Of a stretch of DNA of 64,000 bases, positions 34,517 to 63,183 are shown in pieces. Under the pieces are notes generated by a model. The model searched no databases and had not been told where the DNA came from. It saw only the letters and a list, made by a program, of their open reading frames with translations. Position numbers and translations under genes: made by a program. Every line of letters begins with the position of its first letter. The stretch's first letter is position 1. Origin of the DNA: an uncultured virus (IMG/VR IMGVR_UViG_3300044612_002233) (Duplodnaviria > Heunggongvirae > Uroviricota > Caudoviricetes); IMG/VR virus record IMGVR_UViG_3300044612_002233, positions 1-64,000 of that record, one strand, 5' to 3'.

Positions 34517-34936
34517 ATGATAGTTAAAGATCTGAATGGAAATGCGGCAAACTGGAACTTAACCGGACACATAGCGAAAGGTAGGGTTAAAGAAAAATCC
34601 TCCTTTCATTTGGCTGCTAGGAAGATATTAACAGAGATATTTCCAACACTCCAAATCCTAGAAGAAGTTCCTATACCTTTAAGGAAATCAGAAACTCTAT
34701 ATTTAGACTTTTACCTTCCACTAATAAAAAGAGCAGTAGAAGTTCATGGTGAACAGCATTATAAGTTTATTCCATTCTATCATAGTTCTAAAATGAATTT
34801 CTTAAAAGCGCAAAAGAGAGACAATGAAAAAAGAGAATGGTGTGAAATAAATGGCATAAGTCACATTGTATTACCTCATTTTGAAAACGCAAATAAATGG
34901 AGAACATTAATAATATATGACAACCAGAACAGCTAA
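34517..34936 (+). CDS. Vsr/DUF559-like endonuclease
   Basis: LDFYLP...AVEVHGEQHY...RDNEKREWC. Confidence 0.7.
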   Translation: MIVKDLNGNAANWNLTGHIAKGRVKEKSSFHLAARKILTEIFPTLQILEEVPIPLRKSETLYLDFYLPLIKRAVEVHGEQHYKFIPFYHSSKMNFLKAQKRDNEKREWCEINGISHIVLPHFENANKWRTLIIYDNQNS

Positions 34937-39168: not shown

Positions 39169-40202
39169 TAACATACTTTAGGAGTAGCTCCTATAATACT
39201 CATAGCATGTGCGAACAACAGTACTTTGGTGAGTACGTACTGGGCTGGAGAGGATTGTCTGGCCAAAAAGCAGATAAAGGAACTATTACTCATAAAGTTC
39301 TTGAAATTTTAGCGGTTATGAAAAAAGCCGAGCAAGATGGACAAACTACTATTGATGACGATCTTATCGGATTAGTTGATATTAATAATTATGATTTAAA
39401 TAATTTAATAGAGAAAGTATATACCTATTATACTAATAATGCTCAACACCATAAATGGTCGGCCAAAGATCATAGAGACTGTAAAGACTGGGTTTATAAG
39501 GCTATAGAATTTAATGGCGGGATGTTTGATCCAAGGAAAAGAAATATTCTTTGTCCAGAACAACACTTTGATTTTGAAATTAAAAAACCCTGGGCTAAAT
39601 ACTCTTATGATATTGGCGGCGAAAAACTTGAGGGTAATCTAGCACTAAAGGGTACTATTGACTTAATAACACTGGTTAATGATTCTACAATAGAAGTAAT
39701 AGACTGGAAAACTGGAAAAAGATTAGATTGGGCTACTGGAGAAGAAAAAACCCAAGAAAAACTAGAAAAAGATCCACAGTTAAAGATTTATCACTATGCA
39801 ATAAAACATCTTTATCCTCATATTAAGAATATAATATTTTCAATATATTTTATTAATGATGGTGGACCATTCTCCATTTGTTTTCATGATTCTGATCTAG
39901 CATCAACAGAAGATATGTTAAGACAAAAATTTGAAGCAATTAAAAGCACTAAAAAGCCAAGGTTGCATAAAAGCTGGATGTGCAGTAAGTTGTGTCATTT
40001 TGGCAAAACAACATTTGATGGAACTCATATTCAGCCAATAGAGGAATATAGAGATGGACAAGTATGCAAATCTGGTCAAACCATGACAAAGTGCGAACAG
40101 ATAAAACATGACCTTGATCTTTATGGAATTGACACTACAATTGGGTTGTACAAGAACAAAAATCACTCGTTTGGAAGTTACAAAGCCCCCGGATCAATAT
40201 GA
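39162..40202 (+). CDS. PD-(D/E)XK RecB/Cas4-like exonuclease, probable ATT start
   Basis: RSSSY...CEQQY, GTITHKVLE, GTIDL, IDWKTG, QLKIY, CSKLC; GAGGAG 8 nt before in-frame ATT 39162. Confidence 0.8.
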   Translation: MIITYFRSSSYNTHSMCEQQYFGEYVLGWRGLSGQKADKGTITHKVLEILAVMKKAEQDGQTTIDDDLIGLVDINNYDLNNLIEKVYTYYTNNAQHHKWSAKDHRDCKDWVYKAIEFNGGMFDPRKRNILCPEQHFDFEIKKPWAKYSYDIGGEKLEGNLALKGTIDLITLVNDSTIEVIDWKTGKRLDWATGEEKTQEKLEKDPQLKIYHYAIKHLYPHIKNIIFSIYFINDGGPFSICFHDSDLASTEDMLRQKFEAIKSTKKPRLHKSWMCSKLCHFGKTTFDGTHIQPIEEYRDGQVCKSGQTMTKCEQIKHDLDLYGIDTTIGLYKNKNHSFGSYKAPGSI

Positions 40203-41614
40203 CAAAAACATATTCAGTTCTTCATGCTCATTCTCACTATAGTCTTTTAGATGGAATTAGTAAGCCTAGTCAAATAGCAGAGAGATGTGTTAATGCCGGA
40301 ATTAAAACCTGTGCAATAACTGATCATGGAACTATTTCCGGATGTGTTCAGTTCTATCAGGCTATGAAAGCCAAAAAAATTAAGCCAATATTAGGTTGCG
40401 AACTTTACATACCTAAAAATGATTCATTCGTTAAAGAGAAAGAGAATAATAATCTGAGTCACTTCTTAGTTCTTGCTAAAAATTTAGCCGGATGGAGGAC
40501 TCTTGTAAAAATCATATCTGAAACTAATAGAATAGACAACTTCTATCATAAGCCTAGAATTAGTTTTGATAGATTGGCACCTATGCTGGACGGAAATATA
40601 ATAGGATTTTGCGGACATTTAGGATCTAGCATATCCGATTTGGTTGAAGAAAATCCTGATAACTATACTGATAAGACAATATCCTTTATAGACTATATGA
40701 AAGAAATATTTGGCAAAGATAATTTCTTTCTAGAAGCTCAACTTATGGATCAGGAACTGAATCCTAAACAAAAAGAAATGACAGATATAATGAGACAATT
40801 ATCTGTTAAGACTAAAACTAAAATAATAGCCACTCCAGATGCTCACTATTGTGAAAGAAAAGATGCTATTGATCAAAGGATTTTATTATGTAATAATCTT
40901 AAGACAACTTTGATAGACATAAATAAGAAACTCTTGGCTAATGAGGACGTTCCAATGAGTTGTTTCTTCAAATCAGATAATTATCATATTCCAGATCCAG
41001 AAGAAATGATAGAATGGCATACCAAAGAAGAAATTGAAAATACTTTATATGTTGATTCAATGTGTGAGGAATATTCTATTCTTAGTAAACCACTACTTCC
41101 TGCTTTTGAATGTCCAAATAATTCCAATCCAGAAGAATATCTGAGACAATTATGTAGAGATGGTTGGAGAGAAAAGATAATGAATGATATTCCAGAATCT
41201 GAGCATACCAAATATGCAGACAGAGTAAAATTAGAATTAGATATTTTACAAAAAGCTGGACTATCTAGTTACTTTCTTATAGTACAAGATATTGTAAACT
41301 ATGTTAAAAAGAGCGGGTGGCTTCCAGGCCCAGGAAGAGGATGTTTTGTGCCTGATACGAACGTTAAAATGCACGACGGCACAACAAAAAAGATCTATCA
41401 AATCAATATAGGAGACATTATAATAGATGCCTATGGAAATCCCCAGGAAGTTTATGATACTTTGCAGTATGATATTAATGAAGATATTATTGAATTAATA
41501 TTTGAAAATGAAAAAACTATTAGATGCACTAAAGACCATAAATTTTTAACAAAAAATAGAGGGTGGGTAGAGGCCCAACATCTATCAAATATAGATGATA
41601 TTGTAGAAGTTTAA
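40199..41614 (+). CDS. dnaE: DNA polymerase III alpha, fragment 1 (PHP + start of palm) fused to split-intein N half
   Basis: HAHSHYSLLDG, AITDHG, KPILGCE, DAHY, YFLIVQD, GPGRG then CFVPDT. Confidence 0.93.
   Translation: MTKTYSVLHAHSHYSLLDGISKPSQIAERCVNAGIKTCAITDHGTISGCVQFYQAMKAKKIKPILGCELYIPKNDSFVKEKENNNLSHFLVLAKNLAGWRTLVKIISETNRIDNFYHKPRISFDRLAPMLDGNIIGFCGHLGSSISDLVEENPDNYTDKTISFIDYMKEIFGKDNFFLEAQLMDQELNPKQKEMTDIMRQLSVKTKTKIIATPDAHYCERKDAIDQRILLCNNLKTTLIDINKKLLANEDVPMSCFFKSDNYHIPDPEEMIEWHTKEEIENTLYVDSMCEEYSILSKPLLPAFECPNNSNPEEYLRQLCRDGWREKIMNDIPESEHTKYADRVKLELDILQKAGLSSYFLIVQDIVNYVKKSGWLPGPGRGCFVPDTNVKMHDGTTKKIYQINIGDIIIDAYGNPQEVYDTLQYDINEDIIELIFENEKTIRCTKDHKFLTKNRGWVEAQHLSNIDDIVEV
41342..41611 (+). 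mobile_element. Split intein N half (90 aa)
   Basis: Block A CFVPDTNVKMHDG, block B IRCTKDHKFLT, GWVEA..L...D.I, then stop. Confidence 0.92.
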
Positions 41615-41637
41615 AAAGAACCCCTTCCTAGACTTTT

Positions 41638-41653
41638 GGTGTATGTTTATATA
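41638..41653 (+). promoter_or_regulatory. Putative phage promoter for the endonuclease
   Basis: GGTGTAtgtttatata, between the IntN stop and endonuclease ATG. Confidence 0.55.
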
Positions 41654-41663
41654 GAGAAATATT

Positions 41664-42473
41664 ATGAAAAATATAACATTCAAATTTCTAGAAAATAATA
41701 ACTTTAAATTTAAGGGATTCAGTAATACCCCCATAAAGGATCAATGCATAACATGTCAAAAAATATTTGAATATAAAAAACTTAAAAAATTTCTAAGAAA
41801 TAGACTATCCTTGCCCACTTCTCAGTGGTGTCAATGTCATAAATGTTTTTTAAAATTTAGAACTATTAATAATCCAGAATGGATGGAGAGTAATCGAAAA
41901 GCACAGCTTATAGCACAAAATAAACCAGAGCAAAAAAAGAAAAATGCTCTAGGAGTGTCAAGAAGCTGGGATAATAAGAGAAAAAAGAAAGCTTCAATCT
42001 ATCTAAAAAATAGATGGAAAACAGATCAAAAATTTGCCCAAAAAGCCAGATCAAATTTAAAAATTAATGATACTCAACATATAAAAAATACATTTGGAAT
42101 TGGTGGACTAAAAGGATTTTATAATGAAATATACTATGATAGCGCATTAGAGTTATCGTATTTATTATGGTGTGAACAACTTAGTATTCCAATTAAAAGA
42201 TATGATCTAGATCCAATACAATACGAAATATCAAATAAACAAAAGTTATATTTTCCAGATTTCATTATCCATGAGGACATAGTGGTAGAGATAAAAGGTA
42301 AGGGCTTGTATTTTGCTAAAAATAAAGAACAAAATTTAGCGAAAACTGCAGAAGCCAAGAAAAAACTAAAAAATAAATTTATAATAATATTTGATCAAGA
42401 CAAAGAAGTTAAAACCTACTATAAAAAAGCCAGAAAATTACATCATGAAATTAAAAAGCAAAAAGATAATTAA
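41664..42473 (+). CDS. Free-standing putative homing endonuclease (TnsA-N-like PD-(D/E)XK) between intein halves
   Basis: CITC...CQCHKC, basic middle, YDSALE...YFPDF...VEIKG. Confidence 0.8.
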   Translation: MKNITFKFLENNNFKFKGFSNTPIKDQCITCQKIFEYKKLKKFLRNRLSLPTSQWCQCHKCFLKFRTINNPEWMESNRKAQLIAQNKPEQKKKNALGVSRSWDNKRKKKASIYLKNRWKTDQKFAQKARSNLKINDTQHIKNTFGIGGLKGFYNEIYYDSALELSYLLWCEQLSIPIKRYDLDPIQYEISNKQKLYFPDFIIHEDIVVEIKGKGLYFAKNKEQNLAKTAEAKKKLKNKFIIIFDQDKEVKTYYKKARKLHHEIKKQKDN

Positions 42474-42552
42474 GAATCACACAGGAAAAGTCCACGATAT
42501 CTCTGTTAAAAATTCTGCATCCTATAATGTAGAGGGGTTGGGAGTACATAAT
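42445..42552 (+). mobile_element. Split intein C half (36 aa)
   Basis: MKLKSKKIIKNHTGKVHDISVKNSASYNVEGLGVHN: block F VHDISV, block G VHN, +1 Ser. Confidence 0.92.
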
Positions 42553-43278
42553 TCTGCTGCAGGATGTTTAGTATCATATCTTATTGGTATTACTCAAATT
42601 GATCCTATAAAATATGATTTACTGTTTGAAAGATTTTATAATGAGGGCCGTAATACTGCAGATCATATCTCCATGCCAGATATTGATGTTGACGTTCCAA
42701 TTAATAAAAGAGAACAGATCATTGAATATATTAAAAATAAGTATGGTTCAGACAAGGTGTCTCAGATGATTACATTTAATACCATGAAAGGTAGAGGGGC
42801 CTTAAAGGAAGTATTAAGAGTATATGATAATATTTCTTTTGAAGAAATGAATAGAATAACAAAGTTCATTCCTGACGAAGCAAAAATTGCTGACGAATTA
42901 CAGGAAATGAAAGAAGATACGGGAGAGGCATCAATTATCAGGTGGGCACTAGAAAACAATGTTGACAAACTGAAGGAGTGGTGCTATATTAGTGATGATG
43001 GTTCTCTTTCTGGGCCTTTGGCGAAAAGGTTTGAACAAGCCATACGACTTGAAGGAACAAAATCTAATCAGTCAAAACATGCTGCCGGTGTAGTTATTAG
43101 TAGTCAAAGTCTCAGTGCTGTTTGTCCTATGGTTTATGATTCAAAAAATAAACAAGCAATAGCAGGGATGGAGATGCAAGATTTGGAAAATCTAGGTTTG
43201 ATTAAATTTGATATTCTAGGAATAGCTTATTTGGATAAAATGATGTGTGTTTCCGATTTACTAAAAAATGGTGTATAA
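42445..43278 (+). CDS. dnaE: Split-intein C half fused to DNA polymerase III alpha fragment 2 (palm/thumb)
   Basis: ...GLGVHN|SAAGCLVSYLIGITQIDP, LLFERF, MPDIDVD, SKHAAGVVI, LIKFDILG. Confidence 0.93.
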   Translation: MKLKSKKIIKNHTGKVHDISVKNSASYNVEGLGVHNSAAGCLVSYLIGITQIDPIKYDLLFERFYNEGRNTADHISMPDIDVDVPINKREQIIEYIKNKYGSDKVSQMITFNTMKGRGALKEVLRVYDNISFEEMNRITKFIPDEAKIADELQEMKEDTGEASIIRWALENNVDKLKEWCYISDDGSLSGPLAKRFEQAIRLEGTKSNQSKHAAGVVISSQSLSAVCPMVYDSKNKQAIAGMEMQDLENLGLIKFDILGIAYLDKMMCVSDLLKNGV

Positions 43279-43285
43279 CATTATA
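43270..43285 (+). promoter_or_regulatory. Putative phage promoter for the second endonuclease
   Basis: GGTGTAtaacattata overlapping the dnaE-2 stop; AAGGA RBS follows. Confidence 0.5.
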
Positions 43286-43311
43286 TCAATTTTTATAAAG
43301 GAAACTACTAT

Positions 43312-43995
43312 ATGAATAAAAAAGACTTAAAAAGAATGTTATATCAGGAAAATAAAACTCAAAGAGAAATTTCTAAAATTTATCTATGCTCTGAGTCTCT
43401 AATAAGCCAAAAAGTAAAGCACTATGGTTTACAAAAAGACATATCAGATGATTATATTGGAAAAAAGTTTCATTCTCTGCAACCTATTGAATACCTAGGT
43501 AAAGACAAAAATAGCCATGCTATATTTTTATGTGTTTGTGATTGCGGTCAAACAAAAACAGTATTAGGAAATTCTTTAAAGAATGGAAATAGCAAAAGCT
43601 GTGGATGCAAGTCTCGTAAAAGAGGAAAAGAACATAAACTATATTCTGGATATGAAGAAATAAGATCAGAATACTGGGGCAGGGTATTACGCGGGGCTAA
43701 AGATCGAGGAATTGATGTAAAAATTACTATTAAAGAAGCATGGGAAATTTTCTTACAACAAGACAGAAAATGTGCATTAAGTGGTGAAATATTATATTTT
43801 CCATATACAAGAAAAACTTCTAAATATAGCACAGCATCTTTGGACAGGATAGATTCAAATGGACACTACGAAAAAGATAATGTACAATGGATTCACAAAA
43901 AATTAAATACTATGAAGATGAATATGACAGAACATGAATTTTTAAATTGGTGTAAAAAAATAAGTATTAATAAAAAATTATGCAAAGGAGAATAA
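43312..43995 (+). CDS. Putative HNH-type homing endonuclease
   Basis: N-terminal HTH, CVCDCG...SCGC, CALSG...SLDRIDS...NVQWIH...NTMK. Confidence 0.75.
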   Translation: MNKKDLKRMLYQENKTQREISKIYLCSESLISQKVKHYGLQKDISDDYIGKKFHSLQPIEYLGKDKNSHAIFLCVCDCGQTKTVLGNSLKNGNSKSCGCKSRKRGKEHKLYSGYEEIRSEYWGRVLRGAKDRGIDVKITIKEAWEIFLQQDRKCALSGEILYFPYTRKTSKYSTASLDRIDSNGHYEKDNVQWIHKKLNTMKMNMTEHEFLNWCKKISINKKLCKGE

Positions 43996-43996
43996 A

Positions 43997-44176
43997 ATGC
44001 AAAAACAATTTCATGAACTAGCGATTGGTGATAGATTCACAGTTAATGGTGTTGAATATATTAAAACTGAAGAAGTTAGAGTTAGCTGTTGCAGAAGTAT
44101 CAATTGTTATGCTGCTTCTGATGCTAATCAAAAAGGACATTTTCCAGGAAATACAGAAGTTACAATAAATGGCTAA
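43997..44176 (+). CDS. Small 59-aa protein (not in ORF track)
   Basis: AGGAG RBS; MQKQFHELAIGDRFTVNGVEYIK...SCCRSINC...; overlaps the next start. Confidence 0.7.
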   Translation: MQKQFHELAIGDRFTVNGVEYIKTEEVRVSCCRSINCYAASDANQKGHFPGNTEVTING

Positions 44177-44864
44177 TCTACAAAAAATTTGTGTCTTTGA
44201 TTTGGAAACGGACGGAGTTAATCCTGATCTTTGTAGTCCAGTTCAAATTGCTGCGGTTATGGTCGATCCATTAAAATTAGAAATAGTTAAAGATTCAGAA
44301 TTTAACATTACTGTTAAGCCATCGGTTTTAGAAGAGAAACCAGAATACTCTTATTCTGATTCTGATGTTCTAGACTTTCACGCTAAAGTGAGAGGTAGTA
44401 CAAAAGATCAAATTTTAGAATCATGGAAGTCATATCAAAAACAAGAACACGGATGGAATATGTTCATATCATACTTAGATATGTATCATATAAGATCCAA
44501 CGGAAAGAAATCTTGTTTCACAGCACCAATAGCAGCTGGTTATAATATCAATAGATTTGATCTAAGGATAATAGAAAGATTAAGTCAAAGATATAATAAT
44601 CTGAATAAAGAGGGAAGATCATCTTTATTCTATCCTAGAGACGTAATAGATATTATGAATTTAATATTTTATTGGTTTGAAGGAAATAATGAACTGAAAA
44701 ACTATACACTAGACAACCTTAGAGATTATCTTGGTATAGACAAAGAAGGTGCTCACGATGCCCTCAAGGATGTTAAGGATACTGCAAATATTTTAATTAG
44801 ATTCTTAAAGTTGCACAGGGGACTGTCGAATAAGATTAAGTTTAAATCATCATTTATTGGATAA
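44169..44864 (+). CDS. dnaQ: DEDDh 3'-5' exonuclease (DnaQ/epsilon-like)
   Basis: FDLETDG, GYNINRFD, AHDALKD. Confidence 0.85.
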   Translation: MANLQKICVFDLETDGVNPDLCSPVQIAAVMVDPLKLEIVKDSEFNITVKPSVLEEKPEYSYSDSDVLDFHAKVRGSTKDQILESWKSYQKQEHGWNMFISYLDMYHIRSNGKKSCFTAPIAAGYNINRFDLRIIERLSQRYNNLNKEGRSSLFYPRDVIDIMNLIFYWFEGNNELKNYTLDNLRDYLGIDKEGAHDALKDVKDTANILIRFLKLHRGLSNKIKFKSSFIG

Positions 44865-44872
44865 ATTAATTA

Positions 44873-46498
44873 ATGGGTAAGTTTTTTACTTTTGATTGTG
44901 GTTGTAAGTTTCCGGTTATAAACGATAATGAGAATTTTCCAAGAATAGATTTTTCTCCAAAATTATCTAATATCAACCTTAACTGTGAAAAAACATGGGA
45001 TTTAATATCTCTTGGTAATACCAAGGGATGTTTTCAGCTAGAGTCCAGACTAGGCCAAACAATGGCCAGAAAACTCAAGCCCCATAATATTGAGCAGTTA
45101 TCCGGGTTGATTAGTATTCTCAGGCCAGGATGTCTTGAGGCTATGAGAGATGGTAAAAGCGTATCAAACCATTATATTGATAAAAAAAATGGATTGGCGT
45201 CTATTGACTATTTCCATACTGCTTTAGAACCTATTCTTAAAGATACATATTCTGAAATGATTTATCAAGAACAGGCGATGTCTATTGCTAAAGAATTAGC
45301 TGGATTTAATCTTAAAGAAGCAGACGATCTTAGAAAAGCAATTGGCAAAAAACAAGCAGATAAAATGGCTAAGGTTAAAGAACAATTTATTATTGGTTCT
45401 AAAAATAAGGGACTAATAAATGAAAAGGAAGCAGAACAAATTTTTGAATGGATTGAAAAAAGTCAAAGATATTTATTTAATGCTAGTCATTCTATTAGTT
45501 ATGCAATGAATGCTTATTTATCTGCGTATGCTAAGGCGCATTTTCCAAGAGTCTTTTTTGCTTCGTATCTTAGGTTTGCCAAAGATAAAATAGATCCTCA
45601 ACAAGAGATTAAAGAGTTGGTTAGAAATGCTATTGAAATGGATATTGAAATAAGAATACCAGACTTTAGAAATTTGAACGAATTATTCATACTCAAGGAT
45701 AAAAAGATATATTTTGGATTAACAGACATTAAAGGTGTTGGTAACTCAGTATATAAAAAGATTATTGATCTTGTTAAGAATTGTGATGTTAATGAATTAT
45801 CTTGGTCACAAACCATGTCTATAGTTCTTTTAAATATAAACTCTATTGCGGCCAAAGCAATGATTAGTTGTGGGGCATTTGACTATTTTAAAAAGAATAG
45901 ATCAGAATTGTTATTTGAATATGAAATATGCAGTGGATTAACAAAGAAAGAGTTGGGGTCTTTTAAGGACTATATATCTGTTAACTCTGATGCTGGAATA
46001 TTAGATATATTAAGATATATATATGACAATACTAAGCTAATAAAAGGCAGGAAAGAGGCTATTAATAATTATATACAATCTATGATACGTCCTCCGTATT
46101 CTTTGGTTGATAAAATAGAATGGCTATCTGATTCAGAAAATGGCCTACTTGGGGTGGGAATTACTTGTTCCAAATTAGATGTTTATGATGTAAGTTCTGC
46201 GAATTGTAATTGTAAAACTTTTAAAACGTCTTTAATTAAAGATAACATTATATTAGTTGGTGAAATTTCTAATATCAATGTTACCAAAACAAAAAATGGT
46301 AAAAACCCTGGATTAGAGATGGCATTTGTAACGATTGAGGACCAGTTTGGTACGCTAGATACTGTGGTCTTTTTTCCAGAACCATTTTCTCAATATAGAT
46401 CGTATTTATTTATAGGAAGCATACTTGTATTTTCTGGTAATCGTAGCAAGTCGAAGGATGGGCTGATTGTGGAGAAGTGCTTTAATCCAGTTTCTTGA
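44873..46498 (+). CDS. dnaE: DNA polymerase III alpha, fragment 3 (fingers, HhH, OB)
   Basis: GCFQLES, ILRPG, IYQEQ, ADDLRKAIGKK, YLFNASH, FGLTDIKGVG, MAFVTIED. Confidence 0.92.
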   Translation: MGKFFTFDCGCKFPVINDNENFPRIDFSPKLSNINLNCEKTWDLISLGNTKGCFQLESRLGQTMARKLKPHNIEQLSGLISILRPGCLEAMRDGKSVSNHYIDKKNGLASIDYFHTALEPILKDTYSEMIYQEQAMSIAKELAGFNLKEADDLRKAIGKKQADKMAKVKEQFIIGSKNKGLINEKEAEQIFEWIEKSQRYLFNASHSISYAMNAYLSAYAKAHFPRVFFASYLRFAKDKIDPQQEIKELVRNAIEMDIEIRIPDFRNLNELFILKDKKIYFGLTDIKGVGNSVYKKIIDLVKNCDVNELSWSQTMSIVLLNINSIAAKAMISCGAFDYFKKNRSELLFEYEICSGLTKKELGSFKDYISVNSDAGILDILRYIYDNTKLIKGRKEAINNYIQSMIRPPYSLVDKIEWLSDSENGLLGVGITCSKLDVYDVSSANCNCKTFKTSLIKDNIILVGEISNINVTKTKNGKNPGLEMAFVTIEDQFGTLDTVVFFPEPFSQYRSYLFIGSILVFSGNRSKSKDGLIVEKCFNPVS

Positions 46499-53102: not shown

Positions 53103-53554
53103 ATGATGTAGGTTTTATTTTGGTTAAACTTTTAAATGATGAAGTTCACGATAATATACTTTCTACTATCAAAGAAATTGAAAAAAATAATCCATACGGA
53201 CAAACTGTAATTTTCAATAGTTATTGCGAGAAGGCCAATCTGTATAATTTGCCAGTATTGCATTTAAGTCAATCACAATTCTTTAATGGAACCTTATTTG
53301 TATTTGATTTACCTAGTGTTATACTTACTAATAAATTCCCAAATTTAAAGAAAAGAATATTGTATACCAATTCCTTGCCTTGGTCCAGTAATCCCGGCAC
53401 CAGATACGAGGAATGGAAATCTCTTTATGATCAAGAGTCATTAGATATTTTAGTAAATAGTACCGACGTATATAATATATATAACATATGCTGGAAAAAA
53501 CCAATAGGAATATCTGAAAGGTTTAATTATGAAGAAGTCTCAAAATTTATATGA
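53099..53554 (+). CDS. Hypothetical protein
   Basis: ORF in operon with overlapping start/stop. Confidence 0.55.
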   Translation: MNDVGFILVKLLNDEVHDNILSTIKEIEKNNPYGQTVIFNSYCEKANLYNLPVLHLSQSQFFNGTLFVFDLPSVILTNKFPNLKKRILYTNSLPWSSNPGTRYEEWKSLYDQESLDILVNSTDVYNIYNICWKKPIGISERFNYEEVSKFI

Positions 53555-54326
53555 CAGTTTGACAGATTCTGACAAACTTGGACTATTACAAACTTTGTAT
53601 ATTGATCAAAAACATAGTTTCGCAGATATAGCGTCGATGCATGGAACTTATGCTAATAAAATCAGGCGAGACGCTAAAAGACTTAATTTAAATATTAGAG
53701 ATAAATCAGAGGCCCAAAAGAATGCTTTGAGTACCGGTAAGCATGAACATCCAACCAAGGGTAAAAAAAGAAACGACTCTGTTAAACAGAAAATAGGAAA
53801 GTCTGTTATGGACTCTTGGGATAATCTCACAAAAACAGAATTAGAACAAAGAAAACAGAAAGCTAAATTAGCTTGGGAAAAATTAGATGAAGATACTAAG
53901 ATTAATATGCAGCAATCAGCAATGAAAGCAGTTAGAGAGTCCAGCAAAACAGGATCAAAATTAGAAAAATTCATACATAAAAAATTGTTGAGCTTAGGAT
54001 ATCAAGTTCAGTTTCATAAAGAGCAATCGTTGGTAAATACCAAGTTGCAGATTGATATCTTTTTGCCTACTATTAATACGGCCATTGAGGTTGACGGTCC
54101 AAGTCATTTTGAACCAGTTTGGGGAGAAAAGAGTTTGGAACGTAATGTTGGATATGATCAAAAGAAAGAGGGCTTGATAACTGGAAGAGGATGGCATCTG
54201 ATTAGAATTAAGCAATTAAAAGATTATTCTCCTTCACGAGCATCATTGGTGGTTGAAAAATTGATACCAATTCTTGATAAATGTTCAAATGAAAAAACTC
54301 CACAAAAAATAATAATAGAGGACTGA
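53529..54326 (+). CDS. DUF559/Vsr-like endonuclease with N-terminal HTH
   Basis: SFADIA...ANKIRR; SKLE, IDIFLP, AIEVDGPSH, D.KK. Confidence 0.75.
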   Translation: MKKSQNLYDSLTDSDKLGLLQTLYIDQKHSFADIASMHGTYANKIRRDAKRLNLNIRDKSEAQKNALSTGKHEHPTKGKKRNDSVKQKIGKSVMDSWDNLTKTELEQRKQKAKLAWEKLDEDTKINMQQSAMKAVRESSKTGSKLEKFIHKKLLSLGYQVQFHKEQSLVNTKLQIDIFLPTINTAIEVDGPSHFEPVWGEKSLERNVGYDQKKEGLITGRGWHLIRIKQLKDYSPSRASLVVEKLIPILDKCSNEKTPQKIIIED

Positions 54327-55455: not shown

Positions 55456-58400
55456 TTATTCATATTCGTATGGTATCATTTCCCACGGAAAATAACTAGC
55501 AGCAACATCTGACTTATTTTCTATTTTGTCAACACTGCCAAAAAATGACCTGAATATCATTTCATTTTGTAGTTTAAAAAAGTCCGGCAATGTTGTTGGC
55601 TCAAGACTAAATGTTGCAGGATTCCTTTGTAGTGCCACCCAAACATACAGACTATTATTTATATTACCTACTTGAGCATTAACTAAATCTGTTTCGTATG
55701 GAACTGGGGGACTTGTAAAACTAGCTGGTCTAAAATCAGACTTTGATCCATATCTATATACTGTGGATAAAATATCAACTCCTCTTAACATTCTAGGTAT
55801 TCTTTTTACCATCACAGATATATTATTTGCATTGTCTAGATTCACGATATTACAAACTCTGGTTGGTTTTCCTATTCTAGTATTGTCTAATGTCATCATG
55901 CCTTTTCCTCCTGGACTTCCAATATTCGTTTGACAACTACCAATTCCCGGCAAATCTAAAGTATCACCAGAATTATCATTGCCTTGATTTTCATTTGTTA
56001 ATGGTACTGCATATAGTTCTGTTGATTCTATTGTTATCTCAGCACCTGGACCAAGGATATTATCCATGGTTTGATCACCATTAATATTAAAATATCTTAG
56101 TTTAGTCAAAGTTTTCCATCCTGTAATAGCAGGATACTGTCTCTGGAATGCGGTTTTTTGTTGATCAATAGCATTACTATTTATTGTATATGTAAACTCA
56201 TCAACATTAGATGTCACATTCTCTGTCGCACCAAAATCAAATTTTATTGTTTGATTAGGTTTAGTTGTAAAGTATGGACATATATTGTTATCTATATAGG
56301 GACTAGCAACACCCAGAACGGGATTAGCTTCTGTGCATTTATATTTTGTTGAAATTAATACTTTTGGATTGCTGTCAAAATCTTGAAAACACGACTGCTT
56401 ACTGTCAATATTAATCCAGTAATGATCTTTATTAGCCTCTCTGTAATAAATATAAATTGGACCAGACTGTTCTCCTTCATTTGCTCCTCGCCAATCAATT
56501 CCAGATAATACTGGTTCAATTTTTGGTAGTACGTGCGGAGATATTCTTCTAGGGTCCGTTATTGGTAGTGATGATTTTAATTTATAGTTAGAGTAATCCG
56601 ATCTGTTTAATTGGTATGTGGTATTATTTGCAGGAATATCAAAGACTGCTTGTTCGTCTAATAATTGTATTATTGAATTTTTTTCTTCTAATAAGTCTTT
56701 AATGGTTTTATATGTTCTAGTTTTATTGCATGCTAACACTAACGGCTGATTAGCGATGTCACAGTTGATGGGATCGTCTTCTAGTTTGTCGTAGTGTTTT
56801 TGCAAATATTTTAATTTAGAAGAATTTAATATTGTTGACGTTGATCCTGGAACACCAACCGCTCCTTCAAGCGCAGTGTCTACTCCTGTGCTCTCAATAG
56901 TAGATAATCTGGAAGTAAGCCAACTAAACTCATTACTAGTAATAGATCTCATTGGTTTATATTCATAATACTTATTCTCTATCTCTAACTCACCAGTACT
57001 TATTCCTGAAGTTAATGGATTTAGTCCATCATCTGTTCGTATGATTGAAAAATTACTTGGTATATCATTATATGAAGATGAGAACTCTATATTTTTAACT
57101 ATCACATCATGATTAGTGGTATCATCGGTATCGGATTTAATATAATAATAATCCTTATTTTCTTTTTCTTTTCTAAAGATTGGAGTTAAAACATTCAAAT
57201 CTTCTTTAGAATATGAGAAGCCATAGCTAGAATTAGAAACAAAACCAGTATTTTCTACCCCACTTACAAAGATTTTTATCTTGTTATGCTTTATCTTATC
57301 GTTATTTCTATTATTAAAAATATCATTAATTTCTTGTAATTGATTATTATGTATGTTATTTGACAATATATTTTTATTAACAAACAAAGACATGTCGCCA
57401 TAAGATCCAACTGAATGAGTTGTTGGAGCAATATCTGTTATATTATTGAATACGTTTTTATTAATATAATCTGATCCCCATATATTGTATTTTTTACTTG
57501 TCTTATCTATAATCGTTGTTTCGTCTTTATATGTTAAGAAAATATTCATTGTATTAGGAACAGACATTAGGTTGTATCCAGAAACACTATTCTCAAATAC
57601 CAGTAAAGAATAGTATTTATTATTTTTATAAATTAATCCCTTTTTACTTATTGTTGCATTAGTTGAGGAGACTCCAGAACAACTAACTATATCTCCCTTT
57701 TTAAATATGTCATAAGGTATTTTGCCTTTGACTAGCACAGCCTTATTGTCTGATAAATCGGTACTAGATAAAGAATTAGAAGATCCTAAAATAGCATTAT
57801 GCTGTAAATAATGGTTTGCTTTAGATAGTGCTGAAGGATCTAGTTTCAGATTTGTCCAAGTTTCATTATTTCTTGCAATACATATTTGCGATGGATTTTC
57901 ACATTCATTTCCTGTAAATGCAACCCTAACTATATCTCCTTCGTTGATGAATGAGTCCGATATAGCAGCGGGCAGAGGTGAACTTGGTAAATTTGATTCA
58001 CAGCTTAAATTTATTTGTTTAATAAAATTTTGATCAATTAAGTCTTCAATAGAATTAACAAGATCAAATGAGAAATCTCCTAATCCATCTACCCCTCCAG
58101 ATAATTTTATAAACTTGTATCTATCTGGTTTTAGTATTGGGGTGTTATGATATTTAAAAATACTAGCTTCAGCAGTATACCATAAAGAGTTAGGCTTTTT
58201 AAAGTTTATTAATATTTTTTCTGGTGACCCAAATGGGTATTTTGCATAACTGGGAAAATAAATCTGTCTTCCTTGATTTGTTAAATTTTCAGCAAATCGA
58301 ACTTCTTTAAAATAATCAAAAATAGCATTATAGCCAGGACTATTTACCGCGCCCTCAAGACCAGCTAAAGCGCCAACTAAAGTTCCCCCAGTAGTTGCTC

Positions 58401-61400
58401 CATAACCAGCTAGAGCAGTCATAATTTGTATTATAGCATAATATGGGAATACTGGTGGCCTAACCATAACCCCCTGACCTGTTGGATCATCCTGGGATGT
58501 TAAACACGTTGTTGAGTCAGATATGCAGGAGTAGGGAGCATTATAATTAGCTATTGGAAGTAAGTGTTTTTGATCTGTCAGATCCGTTATAAAACTGTAT
58601 GATGGATATGATGGATCTTTTTTATAGTCAAATAATGACAAAGCATCATTATTACCATAAGAGGCTAAACTGGGATTGGTATTTGGTACTGGATCTCTAA
58701 CAGAACCAACATGAAGTATCAATTCCCAATTGCATAATGAATTATATAATAAATGTGATTTTGTATTAGTTTCTGTACTCTCTAATCCCGACAAATACTG
58801 ATTATTTATTGTTGAATCTAAAACATTCATATCGTCTTCTTCATCAAGAACCATAATATTCAGAGTAAATGTGGTTTTTCCATCAAAATCCCCATCTCTT
58901 TGTTTTGGCGAGCCCTCTAAACACGGCCCAGATTCTGGAGCTAGATTTTTAAAAAGTAATTCTGAAACGAACTTACTAAAACTATTGTTACTAATATTTA
59001 ATTTATTATGTTTTATAATAGAAGAATATTCACAACACTCTCTATCAGAATATCCTGTTGCGGCTACAGTTGGCAATAATTCATCATTTGATCTTATGAT
59101 ATTTTGCATTTTAGAAACTTGACTTGTCATATAAGAATACTGTCCACTTGGATGATAATATCCAGAACCTAACAGATTCATATCACAAGGAGTATTATGC
59201 TTTGAAGCGTGATCTGAGAATTTCACACTAAAATTATACTTATTATTTTGTATTGTTTCTTGGTTTAATAAAACCAGTTTAAATGAGCTAGGTGATGCTC
59301 CTGATGGACTATTGATTCCAACTAAATCTTTCAGATAATTTTCAATCTTTGCATTATTAAGAGATCCTGTGATTCTATTCTGGTTTGTCGAATAATTTCC
59401 AAAAAATATCCTAGGATCGAATGTTTGATCTAAAAATTCTGAAGTGCTTTTGAGTGGGGATGGTGGAGGATTGGCCATGGAACGAAATCTAGGAACGCCT
59501 TCAGCATCACAGTAATCAACATCTAGCCAAACAACCATATTTTTGGTATTAACATAATTTAAAAAGTTTAATTTAACCTCAATATCTTTTATTCCAAATC
59601 CATTTACTCTTGGAATTCTAAATTGCATTCGTCCATCTGGTAATTGAATTTTTTCTGGCAAAGAATGAGGTCCGGTAACAGCAAATGAATAAGAAAAATT
59701 AGTTTGACCCTGATCGGTTAAAAACTCGTCGTTAGCTATTGGATAATTATTTGTGGCTGTTGGTTCTATGCCTTTTGGTTCTCCACCAGAAAGTATTCTG
59801 TATCCATGATTACTAGAATTATTAACACTTGTGATTTTTGTATCTATATAATTTTTATGTTTTTGATTATTATTATATAATTCAATATCCTGCCCCGGCC
59901 TTATATCTGCACAAGAACATAACATATCCCACTGAATTTCTTTTGCTATTCCTAATGTTATTGAACTGGAAAAAGTTTTTGATTGTATTGTGCTATTCTC
60001 AATATTTATTGGTCCAGATCGTAATCTTGTTATTTGTGGGCCTAAGAAACTAAAAGAGTCTCTTGCTCCAGGATTAAACTTTAATACTGATCCTCTATTT
60101 GCATGTATGGAATACTCATTTCCTCCAGAATATGGTATCCATCCACTATTTGGATGAAAAGCCCCTTTAGTAAATGGCATTATTAAACCGGTGCCACTTA
60201 CCATTACTGCTTTTTGATAGCATAATTTATATGTTGATGTATCCGGAAAATTACGATAGTTTAATGGAAAACCGGTTACAACAGGTAGATTTGTTGATGC
60301 TCCTTGTCCAGCAACTATTCCTTTATCATTAATTGAGACCTGTGGTTTGGTGAGTCCATTAATATCTACTCCTATGGAATCTATGAATTTTTTACTATAT
60401 CCTCCATAGGCTTTAACTTTTGGTGCTTTTTTTGTACTAATCACTGGGAAATTAAAAATACCACTATCTCTAATACATTTTGCTAAATTTCTTGTAGTAT
60501 CCCACTCGTATGCTCTTAGCTGAAATGCTTCAGGATCCTTATTGGTTCTTGTGGTTTTATTAAAGTCATAATTTTTTGTGTCTACAATATTTCCATTGCT
60601 ATCTGAGGTAGAAATTTTAGCATGACTTTTATAACTTCTAATTTTTGGAAAATATAAGCTCAAACATTGAGAACATTCGTCTTGATCTGTTCTAATTTTT
60701 TCTAGCCAGACCGAATGCAATTTTACTATTGTATTATTAGTTTCAAATATCAAAGTTAGTGGACATGTATCTTTATGTGTATAATTTGCACTATAGCTAA
60801 AAATATAATCTTTAGATAATGAATATACATCGTCTTGGCTTGCTGAGCCAAATGTTCCTATAAATTCTCTAACAGAAAAATCTGTTTTTATCGGATAAAT
60901 CACCCCATGATAATTACTAATTGCTATTTTGTTTATCTTTGATATGTTTGATTTTACTAGATCTTTATCAAGAATTAATGGAATATTTTCATTCGCAATG
61001 TACGATGGAGTAACCGACGGTGGATATACCCAAGATATGTTTTTACTATCCCAATATTTACCATAAGAAATAGCATTTTCTTTCATAGCCCCACCCTGAC
61101 CAATCACTAACTGTCTACCATCAACAATGTATACGGTTTTTTGTTTTTTAAATGTCCCAAACGGACTAGATATTGTGCATTGAAAAGTATATTTACCAGT
61201 ATAATTTGCATAGAATGTAACCTCATTAGAGGTTCCAGACAATAGTTCATTTTTACCAAAAGTTCCCTGCGGACCTTCTAATTGTTCCCAAAAGAAAGAA
61301 TTTTGACCATTAATATAATTTGTTAAAAGAAGTATGGAGCCCTCATCATAAGATTTCTCTATTTCTGCTATCTCCAAAGCAACCAATTGTATACCAGATT

Positions 61401-63183
61401 CTTGCAGTTGGGTACAATGTGGTCTGGTTGGTTCGTACTGTAGATTAACATCGTCGCCATCATTTACAACAGTAGAATAAATATAATCATATATCACTTG
61501 ATTATTAGCATCAAGATCCTGGTTAGCGGGATCATTATAATTATTATTATCTGATCGATAAAATCTAGGAACATCTCCTTTATATTCCATTCTGGGAATA
61601 AATAATGTTTTAAGATCCTGTGTGATATCTCTAAAACGAGGTTTTCCAACGTCATATAGTGGTATAGTTGTTTTCTTTGTATTATCGACCAATACGTCTA
61701 TATTTGCATTAAACTCATTTAGTTTTGTTTGTATCGTTGTATTATCAAAAATAATTCTTTGATTATTATACACTGAGGTATTTTTTAAAGATTTATTACA
61801 ATAATTGTCTAGAACTTGTGTTATTGCAATACCTTTATTATCAAATTTTAACACATCAGTCTTTGCAGAGATGGACGAGGTTCCTGATAGTTTAAGGTGT
61901 GCCCCATATTTTGATATTAATTTATAAAATAGTTGTGAATTATCATTAATTAAATTATTATTAAGGGTTATTGGAGAAAATTTAGTATCTAAATACAAAG
62001 ATCGATTATTCCTATCATTAGTTGTATTCTGTAAAAATCTACTAATATCTATTAATAGATTCTTTAAATTTAATATCTCAGTATTGATATCAGAAAAAGA
62101 TTCATTAAGCTTATTTTGTATAAGATTCTTTATCTCTGTAGAATCTAGCGCCTCAATAGAGAAGTCATCAATGAATGGACTAGTACTTAGTGCATGGGCT
62201 ATTCTCTTATAAAATCGGGATGTTTTTAAATTCTTATTACTAAAAGATCTTTTTTCATCAAGTGTTAATATTCTATATATTGATGAATATTTCTGATAAA
62301 GAGCGGATGAAACATATGATCTACATGGTATATTATATGTTAATGAAGAAGCTCTTTCAGTATCACTATTATGAAAGAAAAAACAGTCCCCATCAGGAAC
62401 CCATAGTATTGGATTCGTATCCATCCTATGTAAAGAAGACGTATTATTATATACATTTTCTGACTTATACATATCAGCTATTTTAAATAATGGATTAGTG
62501 CCTAAAGAGCTAAGTTCCACAATAGTTTTTCCTAATTCCTCATCGAAGACATAGCTACCATTAGTAAGCGTTTTACTCTGCTGATTAACCGAATATAATC
62601 TAGCATTATTTATTTTAATATAAATATTATTAGTATCTCCACTTTTAACCAATCTTGATCCATTTGGGAAATATGTTAATGGTTGCTCTTTGCCTCCGTG
62701 AATATTAGAATTATTAGTTATGTCCTTTAGTCTAAACCAACAAAGAATTCCATAATATACAGAGTAAGGAGTATTCTGTCCATTTAAAAACCAGTCAATA
62801 CACATTTTAGCATTACTAGTTGTCCAGCTTTTAAAGTTTGGGGTGAAAGAGAAAAAACTCTCAATACCTAATTGCCCACTAGTTAATAAAGGATTGCTAT
62901 TATAACAGCTACCGTGAGATGACAATAGTTTATTATCAACATATGTATCAGAATTAATAATTAATGGCTGCCATACATCTAATACATCATCAAGAATGGA
63001 ACCTGCCTGAGCTTGTTGTATCAGAGCATCAAGAGATGGTGAACGAATTAGCCCTCCTCCAGTATTATCATTATAGGTTAATGCCCCATTGGAGTTGACC
63101 GTGTACGGCAATAAGTCATCCAATAATGAATGCTTAATAATATTACAATTGCTACTTTTATCTATAATCCTTGAACTAAACAT
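55456..63183 (-). CDS. Large (2575 aa) putative virion/baseplate protein
   Basis: S/T/N-rich long ORF; PKD-like FWEQLEGP...GKYTFQCTI segment; P-domain-like IKDIEVKLNF. Confidence 0.6.
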   Translation of the reverse strand: MFSSRIIDKSSNCNIIKHSLLDDLLPYTVNSNGALTYNDNTGGGLIRSPSLDALIQQAQAGSILDDVLDVWQPLIINSDTYVDNKLLSSHGSCYNSNPLLTSGQLGIESFFSFTPNFKSWTTSNAKMCIDWFLNGQNTPYSVYYGILCWFRLKDITNNSNIHGGKEQPLTYFPNGSRLVKSGDTNNIYIKINNARLYSVNQQSKTLTNGSYVFDEELGKTIVELSSLGTNPLFKIADMYKSENVYNNTSSLHRMDTNPILWVPDGDCFFFHNSDTERASSLTYNIPCRSYVSSALYQKYSSIYRILTLDEKRSFSNKNLKTSRFYKRIAHALSTSPFIDDFSIEALDSTEIKNLIQNKLNESFSDINTEILNLKNLLIDISRFLQNTTNDRNNRSLYLDTKFSPITLNNNLINDNSQLFYKLISKYGAHLKLSGTSSISAKTDVLKFDNKGIAITQVLDNYCNKSLKNTSVYNNQRIIFDNTTIQTKLNEFNANIDVLVDNTKKTTIPLYDVGKPRFRDITQDLKTLFIPRMEYKGDVPRFYRSDNNNYNDPANQDLDANNQVIYDYIYSTVVNDGDDVNLQYEPTRPHCTQLQESGIQLVALEIAEIEKSYDEGSILLLTNYINGQNSFFWEQLEGPQGTFGKNELLSGTSNEVTFYANYTGKYTFQCTISSPFGTFKKQKTVYIVDGRQLVIGQGGAMKENAISYGKYWDSKNISWVYPPSVTPSYIANENIPLILDKDLVKSNISKINKIAISNYHGVIYPIKTDFSVREFIGTFGSASQDDVYSLSKDYIFSYSANYTHKDTCPLTLIFETNNTIVKLHSVWLEKIRTDQDECSQCLSLYFPKIRSYKSHAKISTSDSNGNIVDTKNYDFNKTTRTNKDPEAFQLRAYEWDTTRNLAKCIRDSGIFNFPVISTKKAPKVKAYGGYSKKFIDSIGVDINGLTKPQVSINDKGIVAGQGASTNLPVVTGFPLNYRNFPDTSTYKLCYQKAVMVSGTGLIMPFTKGAFHPNSGWIPYSGGNEYSIHANRGSVLKFNPGARDSFSFLGPQITRLRSGPINIENSTIQSKTFSSSITLGIAKEIQWDMLCSCADIRPGQDIELYNNNQKHKNYIDTKITSVNNSSNHGYRILSGGEPKGIEPTATNNYPIANDEFLTDQGQTNFSYSFAVTGPHSLPEKIQLPDGRMQFRIPRVNGFGIKDIEVKLNFLNYVNTKNMVVWLDVDYCDAEGVPRFRSMANPPPSPLKSTSEFLDQTFDPRIFFGNYSTNQNRITGSLNNAKIENYLKDLVGINSPSGASPSSFKLVLLNQETIQNNKYNFSVKFSDHASKHNTPCDMNLLGSGYYHPSGQYSYMTSQVSKMQNIIRSNDELLPTVAATGYSDRECCEYSSIIKHNKLNISNNSFSKFVSELLFKNLAPESGPCLEGSPKQRDGDFDGKTTFTLNIMVLDEEDDMNVLDSTINNQYLSGLESTETNTKSHLLYNSLCNWELILHVGSVRDPVPNTNPSLASYGNNDALSLFDYKKDPSYPSYSFITDLTDQKHLLPIANYNAPYSCISDSTTCLTSQDDPTGQGVMVRPPVFPYYAIIQIMTALAGYGATTGGTLVGALAGLEGAVNSPGYNAIFDYFKEVRFAENLTNQGRQIYFPSYAKYPFGSPEKILINFKKPNSLWYTAEASIFKYHNTPILKPDRYKFIKLSGGVDGLGDFSFDLVNSIEDLIDQNFIKQINLSCESNLPSSPLPAAISDSFINEGDIVRVAFTGNECENPSQICIARNNETWTNLKLDPSALSKANHYLQHNAILGSSNSLSSTDLSDNKAVLVKGKIPYDIFKKGDIVSCSGVSSTNATISKKGLIYKNNKYYSLLVFENSVSGYNLMSVPNTMNIFLTYKDETTIIDKTSKKYNIWGSDYINKNVFNNITDIAPTTHSVGSYGDMSLFVNKNILSNNIHNNQLQEINDIFNNRNNDKIKHNKIKIFVSGVENTGFVSNSSYGFSYSKEDLNVLTPIFRKEKENKDYYYIKSDTDDTTNHDVIVKNIEFSSSYNDIPSNFSIIRTDDGLNPLTSGISTGELEIENKYYEYKPMRSITSNEFSWLTSRLSTIESTGVDTALEGAVGVPGSTSTILNSSKLKYLQKHYDKLEDDPINCDIANQPLVLACNKTRTYKTIKDLLEEKNSIIQLLDEQAVFDIPANNTTYQLNRSDYSNYKLKSSLPITDPRRISPHVLPKIEPVLSGIDWRGANEGEQSGPIYIYYREANKDHYWINIDSKQSCFQDFDSNPKVLISTKYKCTEANPVLGVASPYIDNNICPYFTTKPNQTIKFDFGATENVTSNVDEFTYTINSNAIDQQKTAFQRQYPAITGWKTLTKLRYFNINGDQTMDNILGPGAEITIESTELYAVPLTNENQGNDNSGDTLDLPGIGSCQTNIGSPGGKGMMTLDNTRIGKPTRVCNIVNLDNANNISVMVKRIPRMLRGVDILSTVYRYGSKSDFRPASFTSPPVPYETDLVNAQVGNINNSLYVWVALQRNPATFSLEPTTLPDFFKLQNEMIFRSFFGSVDKIENKSDVAASYFPWEMIPYEYE

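Follow-up and report, generated by a model that had tools for sequence, protein, structure and literature searches.

Fractured split-intein loci and the layout of the dnaE locus

Fractured-gene loci, in which a split intein is paired with a free-standing endonuclease, were described by Dassa et al. in 2009 (PMC2677866). The accessible text of that report gives 26 such loci, including three in dnaE, with nucleases of the GIY-YIG or Vsr-like type; it names I-Ssp6803I as a PD-(D/E)XK homing enzyme, and nuclease-less and in-frame stages are part of its model. Out-of-frame endonucleases within contiguous inteins have been reported in two preprints (bioRxiv 10.1101/2025.01.02.630785 and 10.64898/2026.09.14.751524), in whose accessible parts the nucleases are endonuclease VII-like, LAGLIDADG, or antisense Vsr-like, and an intein-less case of an out-of-frame nuclease appears in the available part of PMC11855218. 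The PD-(D/E)XK type treated here is absent from the known intein nuclease types given in the accessible portion of bioRxiv 10.1101/2025.01.02.630785, and a literature search, with most subscription papers outside its range, brought up no account of an intein that houses a TnsA/endonuclease I-like nuclease.

The window analyzed here, a stretch of 64,000 nucleotides from the uncultured virus record IMGVR_UViG_3300044612_002233 (120,027 bases), contains a dnaE gene that a split intein breaks into two, both parts lying at one locus on one strand and phage replication genes surrounding the element (Table 1). Matches to this DNA are mostly in lake-water metagenomes, with none in RNA datasets among those listed as containing it. 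The insertion site is GRG|SAAG of the phage dnaE, and the complete element (41342–42552) comprises 1211 bp. The nuclease ORF starts 49 nt past the TAA of the DnaE–IntN ORF (40199–41614), and the ATG of IntC at 42445 is located within the nuclease ORF in another frame, giving an overlap of 29 nt (42445–42473). We infer this IntC start from the sequence, with backing from a 35–36 aa IntC start in most related loci. The intein motifs are intact (Cys1, TxxH, the terminal His-Asn, and Ser+1), the two halves are oppositely charged, and IntN matches the solved NrdJ-1 intein at an E-value of 7e-7. Read-through or frameshifting in place of a true split was considered for the window and rejected, as the halves are out of frame and the two other frames contain 19 and 33 stops over the 230 nuclease codons.

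The preliminary description of this DNA had placed a 269-aa ORF with its own ATG at the position of an intein homing domain, overlapping the IntC start by 29 nt, and had likened the locus to fractured genes; all of this was borne out, the ORF lying between the 90-aa and 36-aa halves. The locus is of the fractured-gene kind, and every obligatory feature examined fits. As far as the accessible text of PMC2677866 extends, the shared features are a same-strand arrangement, a free-standing endonuclease, opposite charges of the halves, and phage replication host genes; the spacer is 27–51 nt there and 49 nt here, the IntC overlap 6–69 nt there and 29 nt here, and the halves 88–105 aa (IntN) and 33–54 aa (IntC) there and 90 and 36 aa here. 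In contrast, the nucleases in that text are GIY-YIG or Vsr-like, whereas the present one is a canonical PD-(D/E)XK enzyme with a Cys4/helix module, and the DnaE inteins given there appear by eye unlike that of the window, IMPDH-1 looking closer. The layout has accordingly been known since 2009; the novelty lies in the type of nuclease, in population evidence pointing to homing as a single unit, and in the variety of architectures that share this site.

Table 1. Features of the dnaE locus (window positions) and of selected related loci (positions in the locus named)
Feature	Position	Strand	Description
DnaE N-extein	40199..41341	+	381 aa; PHP domain and start of polymerase domain; C-terminal ...PGPGRG
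Split intein IntN	41342..41614	+	90 aa; Cys1, TxxH block; acidic (9 K/R, 17 D/E); TAA stop
Target-like sequence	41614..41631	-	L-G-R-G-S codons, versus P-G-R-G-S at empty site; candidate autorepression operator
GGTGTA and AT-rich tract	41638..41655	+	promoter-like motif, common to other genes of the phage
Putative free-standing homing endonuclease gene	41664..42473	+	269 aa, own ATG
Nuclease N-terminal module	41664..42068	+	about residues 1-135; two CxxC pairs, long basic helices, N-x-x-A-Q-x-I-A-Q-N-x-P-E motif; presumed DNA-recognition part
PD-(D/E)XK nuclease domain	42093..42455	+	residues 144-264; S160/E163, D199, E209, K211
Split intein IntC	42445..42552	+	36 aa; basic (7 K/R, 2 D/E); C-terminal His-Asn; first 29 nt inside nuclease gene
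DnaE middle extein	42553..43278	+	241 aa; first residue Ser (SAAG)
HNH/endonuclease VII-like gene	43312..43995	+	second nuclease, unrelated; own GGTGTA at 43270; outside element
DEDD-type exonuclease gene	44169..44864	+	between DnaE parts
DnaE C-terminal part	44873..46498	+	finger, HhH, OB; separate gene; break without intein
Nested contiguous DnaE inteins	L052:4490-5746, L065:4502-5749, L077:1956-2816		nuclease in +1 frame
IntN–HNH fusion	L217:1663-3582		DnaE-IntN fused to Cys4/helix module and HNH replacing PD-(D/E)XK; then separate IntC

The second break in DnaE (43278–44873 of the window) has no intein and houses the exonuclease gene, an order common to close relatives. Among the 80 closest alleles, the HNH/endonuclease VII-like gene (43312–43995) occupies the same place only in L085, which is the window's own locus, and in L147 (70% identity), and one contig from a lake run lacks it there.

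The nuclease and its N-terminal module

Homologues of the nuclease numbered 82 among 448 candidates. Their alignment shows no substitution at S160, D199, E209, K211, or C61, and at least 90% of the sequences keep E163, C28, C31, and C58, confirming the catalytic motif and Cys clusters that had been read from the single sequence. The catalytic motif is intact in 45 of the 46 full-length relatives, and the dN/dS ratio is 0.06–0.18 in seven of eight pairs, the remaining pair being saturated; the active site is, as judged from these substitution patterns, under purifying selection.

The window protein itself falls below the Pfam cut-offs (best match, Phage_endo_I; 20.5 bits versus a cut-off of 29.1) and has no match to Pfam Tn7_TnsA-like_N (PF08722), while homologues match TnsA-like_N (60 of 82; best, 3e-9) and Phage_endo_I (54 of 82) at E ≤ 0.01. 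The best match in a PDB sequence search was T7 endonuclease I, at an E-value of 0.1. In the predicted structure (pLDDT, 91.8), a loose linker joins the N-terminal Cys/helix part to an alpha/beta domain at the C terminus; residues 1–140 modeled alone from the single sequence gave a pLDDT of 58.9. A Foldseek search with the predicted structure returned no match at E ≤ 0.001, the top-ranked row being a TnsABCD chain. A wider structural search gave TnsA (1t0f; Z-score, 7.1; rmsd, 3.6 over 123 residues), I-Bth0305I (Z-score, 5.7), and Vsr (Z-score, 5.5), with all matches confined to the C-terminal domain. The highest Z-score (7.4) belonged to a mitoribosomal chain, and values of 7–8 are common for models without a clear match; nearly all top rows share the restriction-enzyme-like core. 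The scores are middling and in agreement with the motif. The PD...ExK motif is present on this core, as is a feature of the PD-(D/E)XK superfamily. The model thus supports a PD-(D/E)XK fold, with TnsA the nearest among characterized nucleases. The earlier name 'TnsA-like' survives in this respect, but as a fold label only, T7 endonuclease I fitting about as well.

The likeness to the N-terminal domain of Tn7 TnsA (PF08722) and to T7 endonuclease I (PF05367) lies in the catalytic core and the motif spacing, whereas only the C-terminal 120 residues match, the N-terminal module differs, and a transposon context is absent. A TnsA transposase subunit was also considered and rejected: only residues 144–269 align, and the related loci have a dnaE context. 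More generally, the weak sequence similarity to T7 endonuclease I and the fold similarity to TnsA could mean that the protein is a housekeeping nuclease of the phage, a resolvase or transposase subunit that came to lie in the break by chance. We consider this extremely unlikely, since the gene is lacking here from 78 of the 80 closest relatives, is single-copy in the 120-kb record, and has as neighbors the intein halves and replication genes, with no transposon genes among the scanned ORFs, and since the similarity is limited to residues 144–264.

With I-Ssp6803I and I-Bth0305I (PMC2677866, accessible text), the nuclease shares the use of a restriction-enzyme-like fold for homing, although those enzymes are intron-encoded and the present one lies between intein halves. 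In the Vsr-like family of the same text the DNA-binding part is N-terminal to the catalytic part, as here, whereas the Vsr-like active site (a catalytic His and an intercalating aromatic pair) departs from the canonical PD-(D/E)XK type. The invariant columns of the present family form PD...ExK with no invariant His in the core, and a Vsr-type active site is absent even though the fold is related. As to the contrast drawn earlier with the usual LAGLIDADG intein nuclease, PD-(D/E)XK homing enzymes and non-LAGLIDADG split-intein nucleases are already in print (PMC2677866, accessible text).

The A-Q-x-I-A-Q-N-x-P-E helix motif of the N-terminal module is also found, often in tandem, in other nucleases, namely L080 (GIY-YIG), L076 (DUF7487/TnsA-like), and, by eye, L082, L083, and L260. 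NUMOD3, looked for as the identity of the motif, gave no Pfam match on the window protein or 11 further proteins; one neighbor cluster in the Atlas (rank 5) pairs NUMOD3 with TnsA-like_N and is a lead in this regard. From its sequence, the helix, which matches no Pfam family, may be a portable motif for DNA binding.

Distribution and movement of the element

Locus searches were anchored on the element and gave 94 de-duplicated loci, the counts being no measure of the element's frequency. A split intein together with a free nuclease at DnaE GRG|S is found in 63 (a scripted count of 64 minus L167, which has a nuclease remnant), and a nuclease with one intein half in 14, mostly at contig ends; for L250, IntN was looked for in sufficient space and none was found. 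At the same site, the nuclease is missing or a remnant in three split inteins (L167, L171, and L173), a contiguous mini-intein occurs once (L181), and the nuclease gene is fused in frame to IntN in L189 and L217. Protein searches add two IntN fusions (P0173 and P0228) and one IntC fusion (P0157). Six loci have no intein match (one 1-kb contig, L076 with a related nuclease elsewhere, and four with the helix motif only), and three carry other inteins. The nuclease is decayed into two or three pieces in L015, L021, L048, L049, and L059. The family is almost confined to the single DnaE site. No cultured phage with the element was found among 50,697 records, in which the one weak match was an uncultured record, and intein-region searches for the element returned distant inteins or exteins only. 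In cellular genomes, a single-pattern scan of low sensitivity yielded one locus from 16 candidate stretches, the common part being the helix repeat only.

In L052 and L065 the nuclease lies out of frame inside a contiguous intein, and the truncated L077 is similar. The intein frame of both is free of stops, where 15.8 and 11.6 would be expected by chance resampling (0 of 300 resamples). These two resemble the out-of-frame cases in the accessible parts of bioRxiv 10.1101/2025.01.02.630785 and 10.64898/2026.09.14.751524, whereas the window's own element is truly split. A split relative of this nested subgroup is L050, with 44% nuclease identity to L065. The same N-terminal module being joined to HNH at the same site in L217 suggests that the module carries the specificity.

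Several relatives have extra DNA or ORFs inside the element, in the gap between IntN and nuclease or between nuclease and IntC (L007:4743–5001, L056:4147–4773, L177:3273–3485, L178:3270–3509, and L063:5642–7453). Further inteins lie shortly downstream in the same dnaE in L170, L176, L177, L189, and L041, and the second N-half of L170 resembles by eye the DnaE-1/-2 N-halves in the accessible part of Dassa et al. 2009 (PMC2677866). L190:3001–4200 is a different contiguous intein, inside which a Cys-rich ORF of 256 aa is nested out of the intein frame.

Confirmed dnaE relatives numbered 313; of the best 80, 78 have an empty site and two an occupied one, and a contiguous intein is found in none. 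The intein-less alleles sought among related phages are therefore abundant, while the contiguous mini-intein alleles sought alongside them are represented by L181 at the same site and by none of these 80. The two carriers are L085, identical to the window, and L086, which differ at 19 of 1211 bases in the element (1.6%) versus 147 of 1860 in the flanks (7.9%); their synonymous divergence is 0.05–0.08 in the element and 0.19–0.43 in four flanking coding stretches. Both lie inside a well-supported 19-row extein group with 17 empty alleles. In the whole extein tree (106 rows), occupancy needs nine changes, at least three of them forced by strong branches. Grouping all occupied alleles together is rejected (p-AU, 8e-31; 39-row subset), and a clade of L001 and L002 is not (p-AU, 0.16). 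In two of four lake runs, one of which may be the source of the window, the contigs include the occupied allele as well as an empty joint at precisely the same position, the empty one coming from a sister strain about 91% alike.

An old element inherited vertically, lost precisely many times, and carrying the nuclease now as a passenger would also explain the presence of the element across very divergent DnaEs (extein identity, 21–98%) and the forms whose nuclease is in pieces or gone. This reading is largely refuted by the comparison of L085 with L086, in which divergence is roughly fivefold lower in the element than in its flanks; the two carriers amid 17 empty alleles and the purifying selection on the nuclease also argue against it, and we regard it as very improbable. 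Recent spread as one IntN–nuclease–IntC unit into intein-less dnaE alleles is well supported by these sequence comparisons, and the unit appears to be moving between phages still.

Between L086 and the empty allele L088, five of 60 bases differ beside the site and seven of 960 away from it (p = 3e-4), which could be a co-conversion pattern or, equally, reflect loss by conversion from an empty allele. Over 17 close loci the nuclease distance correlates with that of the intein (r, 0.85, or 0.83 when the extein is controlled for) and less with the extein (0.53), and over all 46 loci it correlates with the extein (0.83) and less with the intein (0.67); the reversal over all 46 loci means that, in the long run, the parts do re-assort.

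The serine codon at +1 has AG in all of the 15 nearest empty alleles and in the empty allele of the lake runs, and TC in the window. Hence GGA|TCT, previously proposed as an intein-less test target, is not what the nearest relatives carry, and such a substrate is a reconstruction; the nearest natural empty sites read GGA|AGT, and the target-like sequence keeps TC there. Across the loci the +1 codon is TCN in 40 and AGY in 11 occupied alleles, and TCN in 20 and AGY in 35 empty ones, a bias confounded by lineage.

Of the composite origin proposed at the outset, the movement of a unit into intein-less dnaE has stood, and the invasion and splitting of a mini-intein has not gained similar ground, for the mini-intein L181 nests inside split lineages in the intein tree. 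Its basal placement is not rejected (p-AU, 0.31), and the nested forms have long branches near the midpoint root, so the order of events may have been mini-first, nested-first, or one of re-fusion.

Control region and proposed mechanism

The hexamer GGTGTA occurs 16 times in the window on the plus strand and never on the minus strand, and six of the 16 copies fall where there is no ORF of 90 aa or more, a fraction that makes up 4.9% of the window (p = 7e-5). It recurs upstream of other phage genes and is present in 12 of 21 close spacers. We infer from this sequence pattern that the copy at 41638 is a phage-type promoter.

Immediately upstream, the spacer contains a sequence resembling the homing site, which was scored with a matrix derived exclusively from empty alleles. 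The window copy is significant against shuffles (p = 0.005) and ranks seventh of all positions. Among relatives, significance is reached in 13 of the 21 close spacers and in 11 of the 34 distant ones but not in the other eight and 23, respectively, and it is reached in none of nine control GGTGTA promoter regions of the window; a test against each locus's own junction was weaker than that with the empty-allele matrix. Relatives have the sequence in one orientation or the other, in line with a DNA operator such as that of I-TevI, as described in the accessible part of PMC2988022. Lying by the promoter, it probably lets the nuclease repress its own gene, to judge from position and sequence. The likeness to the I-TevI operator is a homing-site look-alike next to the nuclease promoter. 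The differences, within the accessible text of PMC2988022, are that I-TevI is a GIY-YIG enzyme in a group I intron with autorepression established by experiment, in contrast to the sequence reasoning applied here, and that the present look-alike is just upstream of the promoter-like motif. No such sequence by the promoter was found in the accessible text of Dassa et al. 2009 (PMC2677866). An RNA hairpin in the 5' leader, present in 15 of 16 loci in that text as a frequent and not obligatory feature, was looked for in three stretches of the nuclease leader here and not found (z-scores, -0.82 to +0.64).

The own start and the promoter-like motif of the nuclease, its tendency over long distances to follow the phage lineage more than the intein, and the related nuclease outside any intein (L076) would also suit an independent homing endonuclease for which the intein break serves as a safe haven and which cuts dnaE at a distance, the halves riding along by co-conversion; such collaborative, or 'intron-less', homing is described in the accessible part of PMC2988022. 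However, the target-like sequence matches the insertion site itself, the L086/L088 differences cluster within 30 nt of it, and the family is almost confined to that one site. We regard such independence as unlikely, and its net outcome would be identical.

It is likely that 41342–42552 constitutes one selfish composite homing element, made up of the two intein halves and, between them, a short control region followed by a free-standing PD-(D/E)XK nuclease gene. In this composite element, the acidic IntN would pair with the basic IntC and trans-splice the DnaE pieces at GRG|S and so preserve the polymerase, as the intact motifs and known split inteins suggest. The nuclease, presumably made from its own phage-type promoter, would use its N-terminal Cys4/helix module to read the conserved codons for P-G-R-G-S when a co-infecting relative brings in an intein-less dnaE, and would cut the empty gene at or close to the site with its C-terminal domain. 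Repair on the occupied allele would then copy the whole element with a few flanking bases, gene conversion being the presumed route and recent copying being shown by the sequence comparison. Nuclease bound to the target-like sequence would probably repress its own gene, and the IntC start inside the nuclease gene would tie the two together.

More tentatively, and with somewhat less than even confidence, the family may be an undescribed, widespread, canonical PD-(D/E)XK family dedicated to one DnaE site, which homes the split intein as a unit, represses itself via a target mimic, and carries a portable Cys4/helix specificity module swappable onto HNH. The site would then display every stage from free gene to intein domain, namely split and nuclease-less forms, fusions to either half, out-of-frame nesting, and the mini form. 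In the boldest part of this proposal, the AGY codon of the nearest empty alleles would allow them to escape cutting, and empty and occupied forms could thereby persist side by side in the same lake.

The loci of 2009 are metagenome fragments, and population evidence of homing was not found in the accessible text (PMC2677866); split-intein homing becomes directly testable here, given a complete locus, empty alleles that are nearly identical, and the joint presence of both forms in lake samples. The family represents a further nuclease type for split-intein loci and offers real examples of the steps proposed for how inteins gain, fuse, and lose endonucleases. The locus also offers a compact natural split intein (90 + 36 aa, Ser+1) and a putative modular site-specific nuclease.

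Elsewhere in the window, the minus strand carries a 2575-aa ORF (55456–63183) without a PHROG match at E ≤ 1e-4, and two further ORFs (34517–34936 and 53529–54326) match PHROG families labeled homing or HNH endonuclease.
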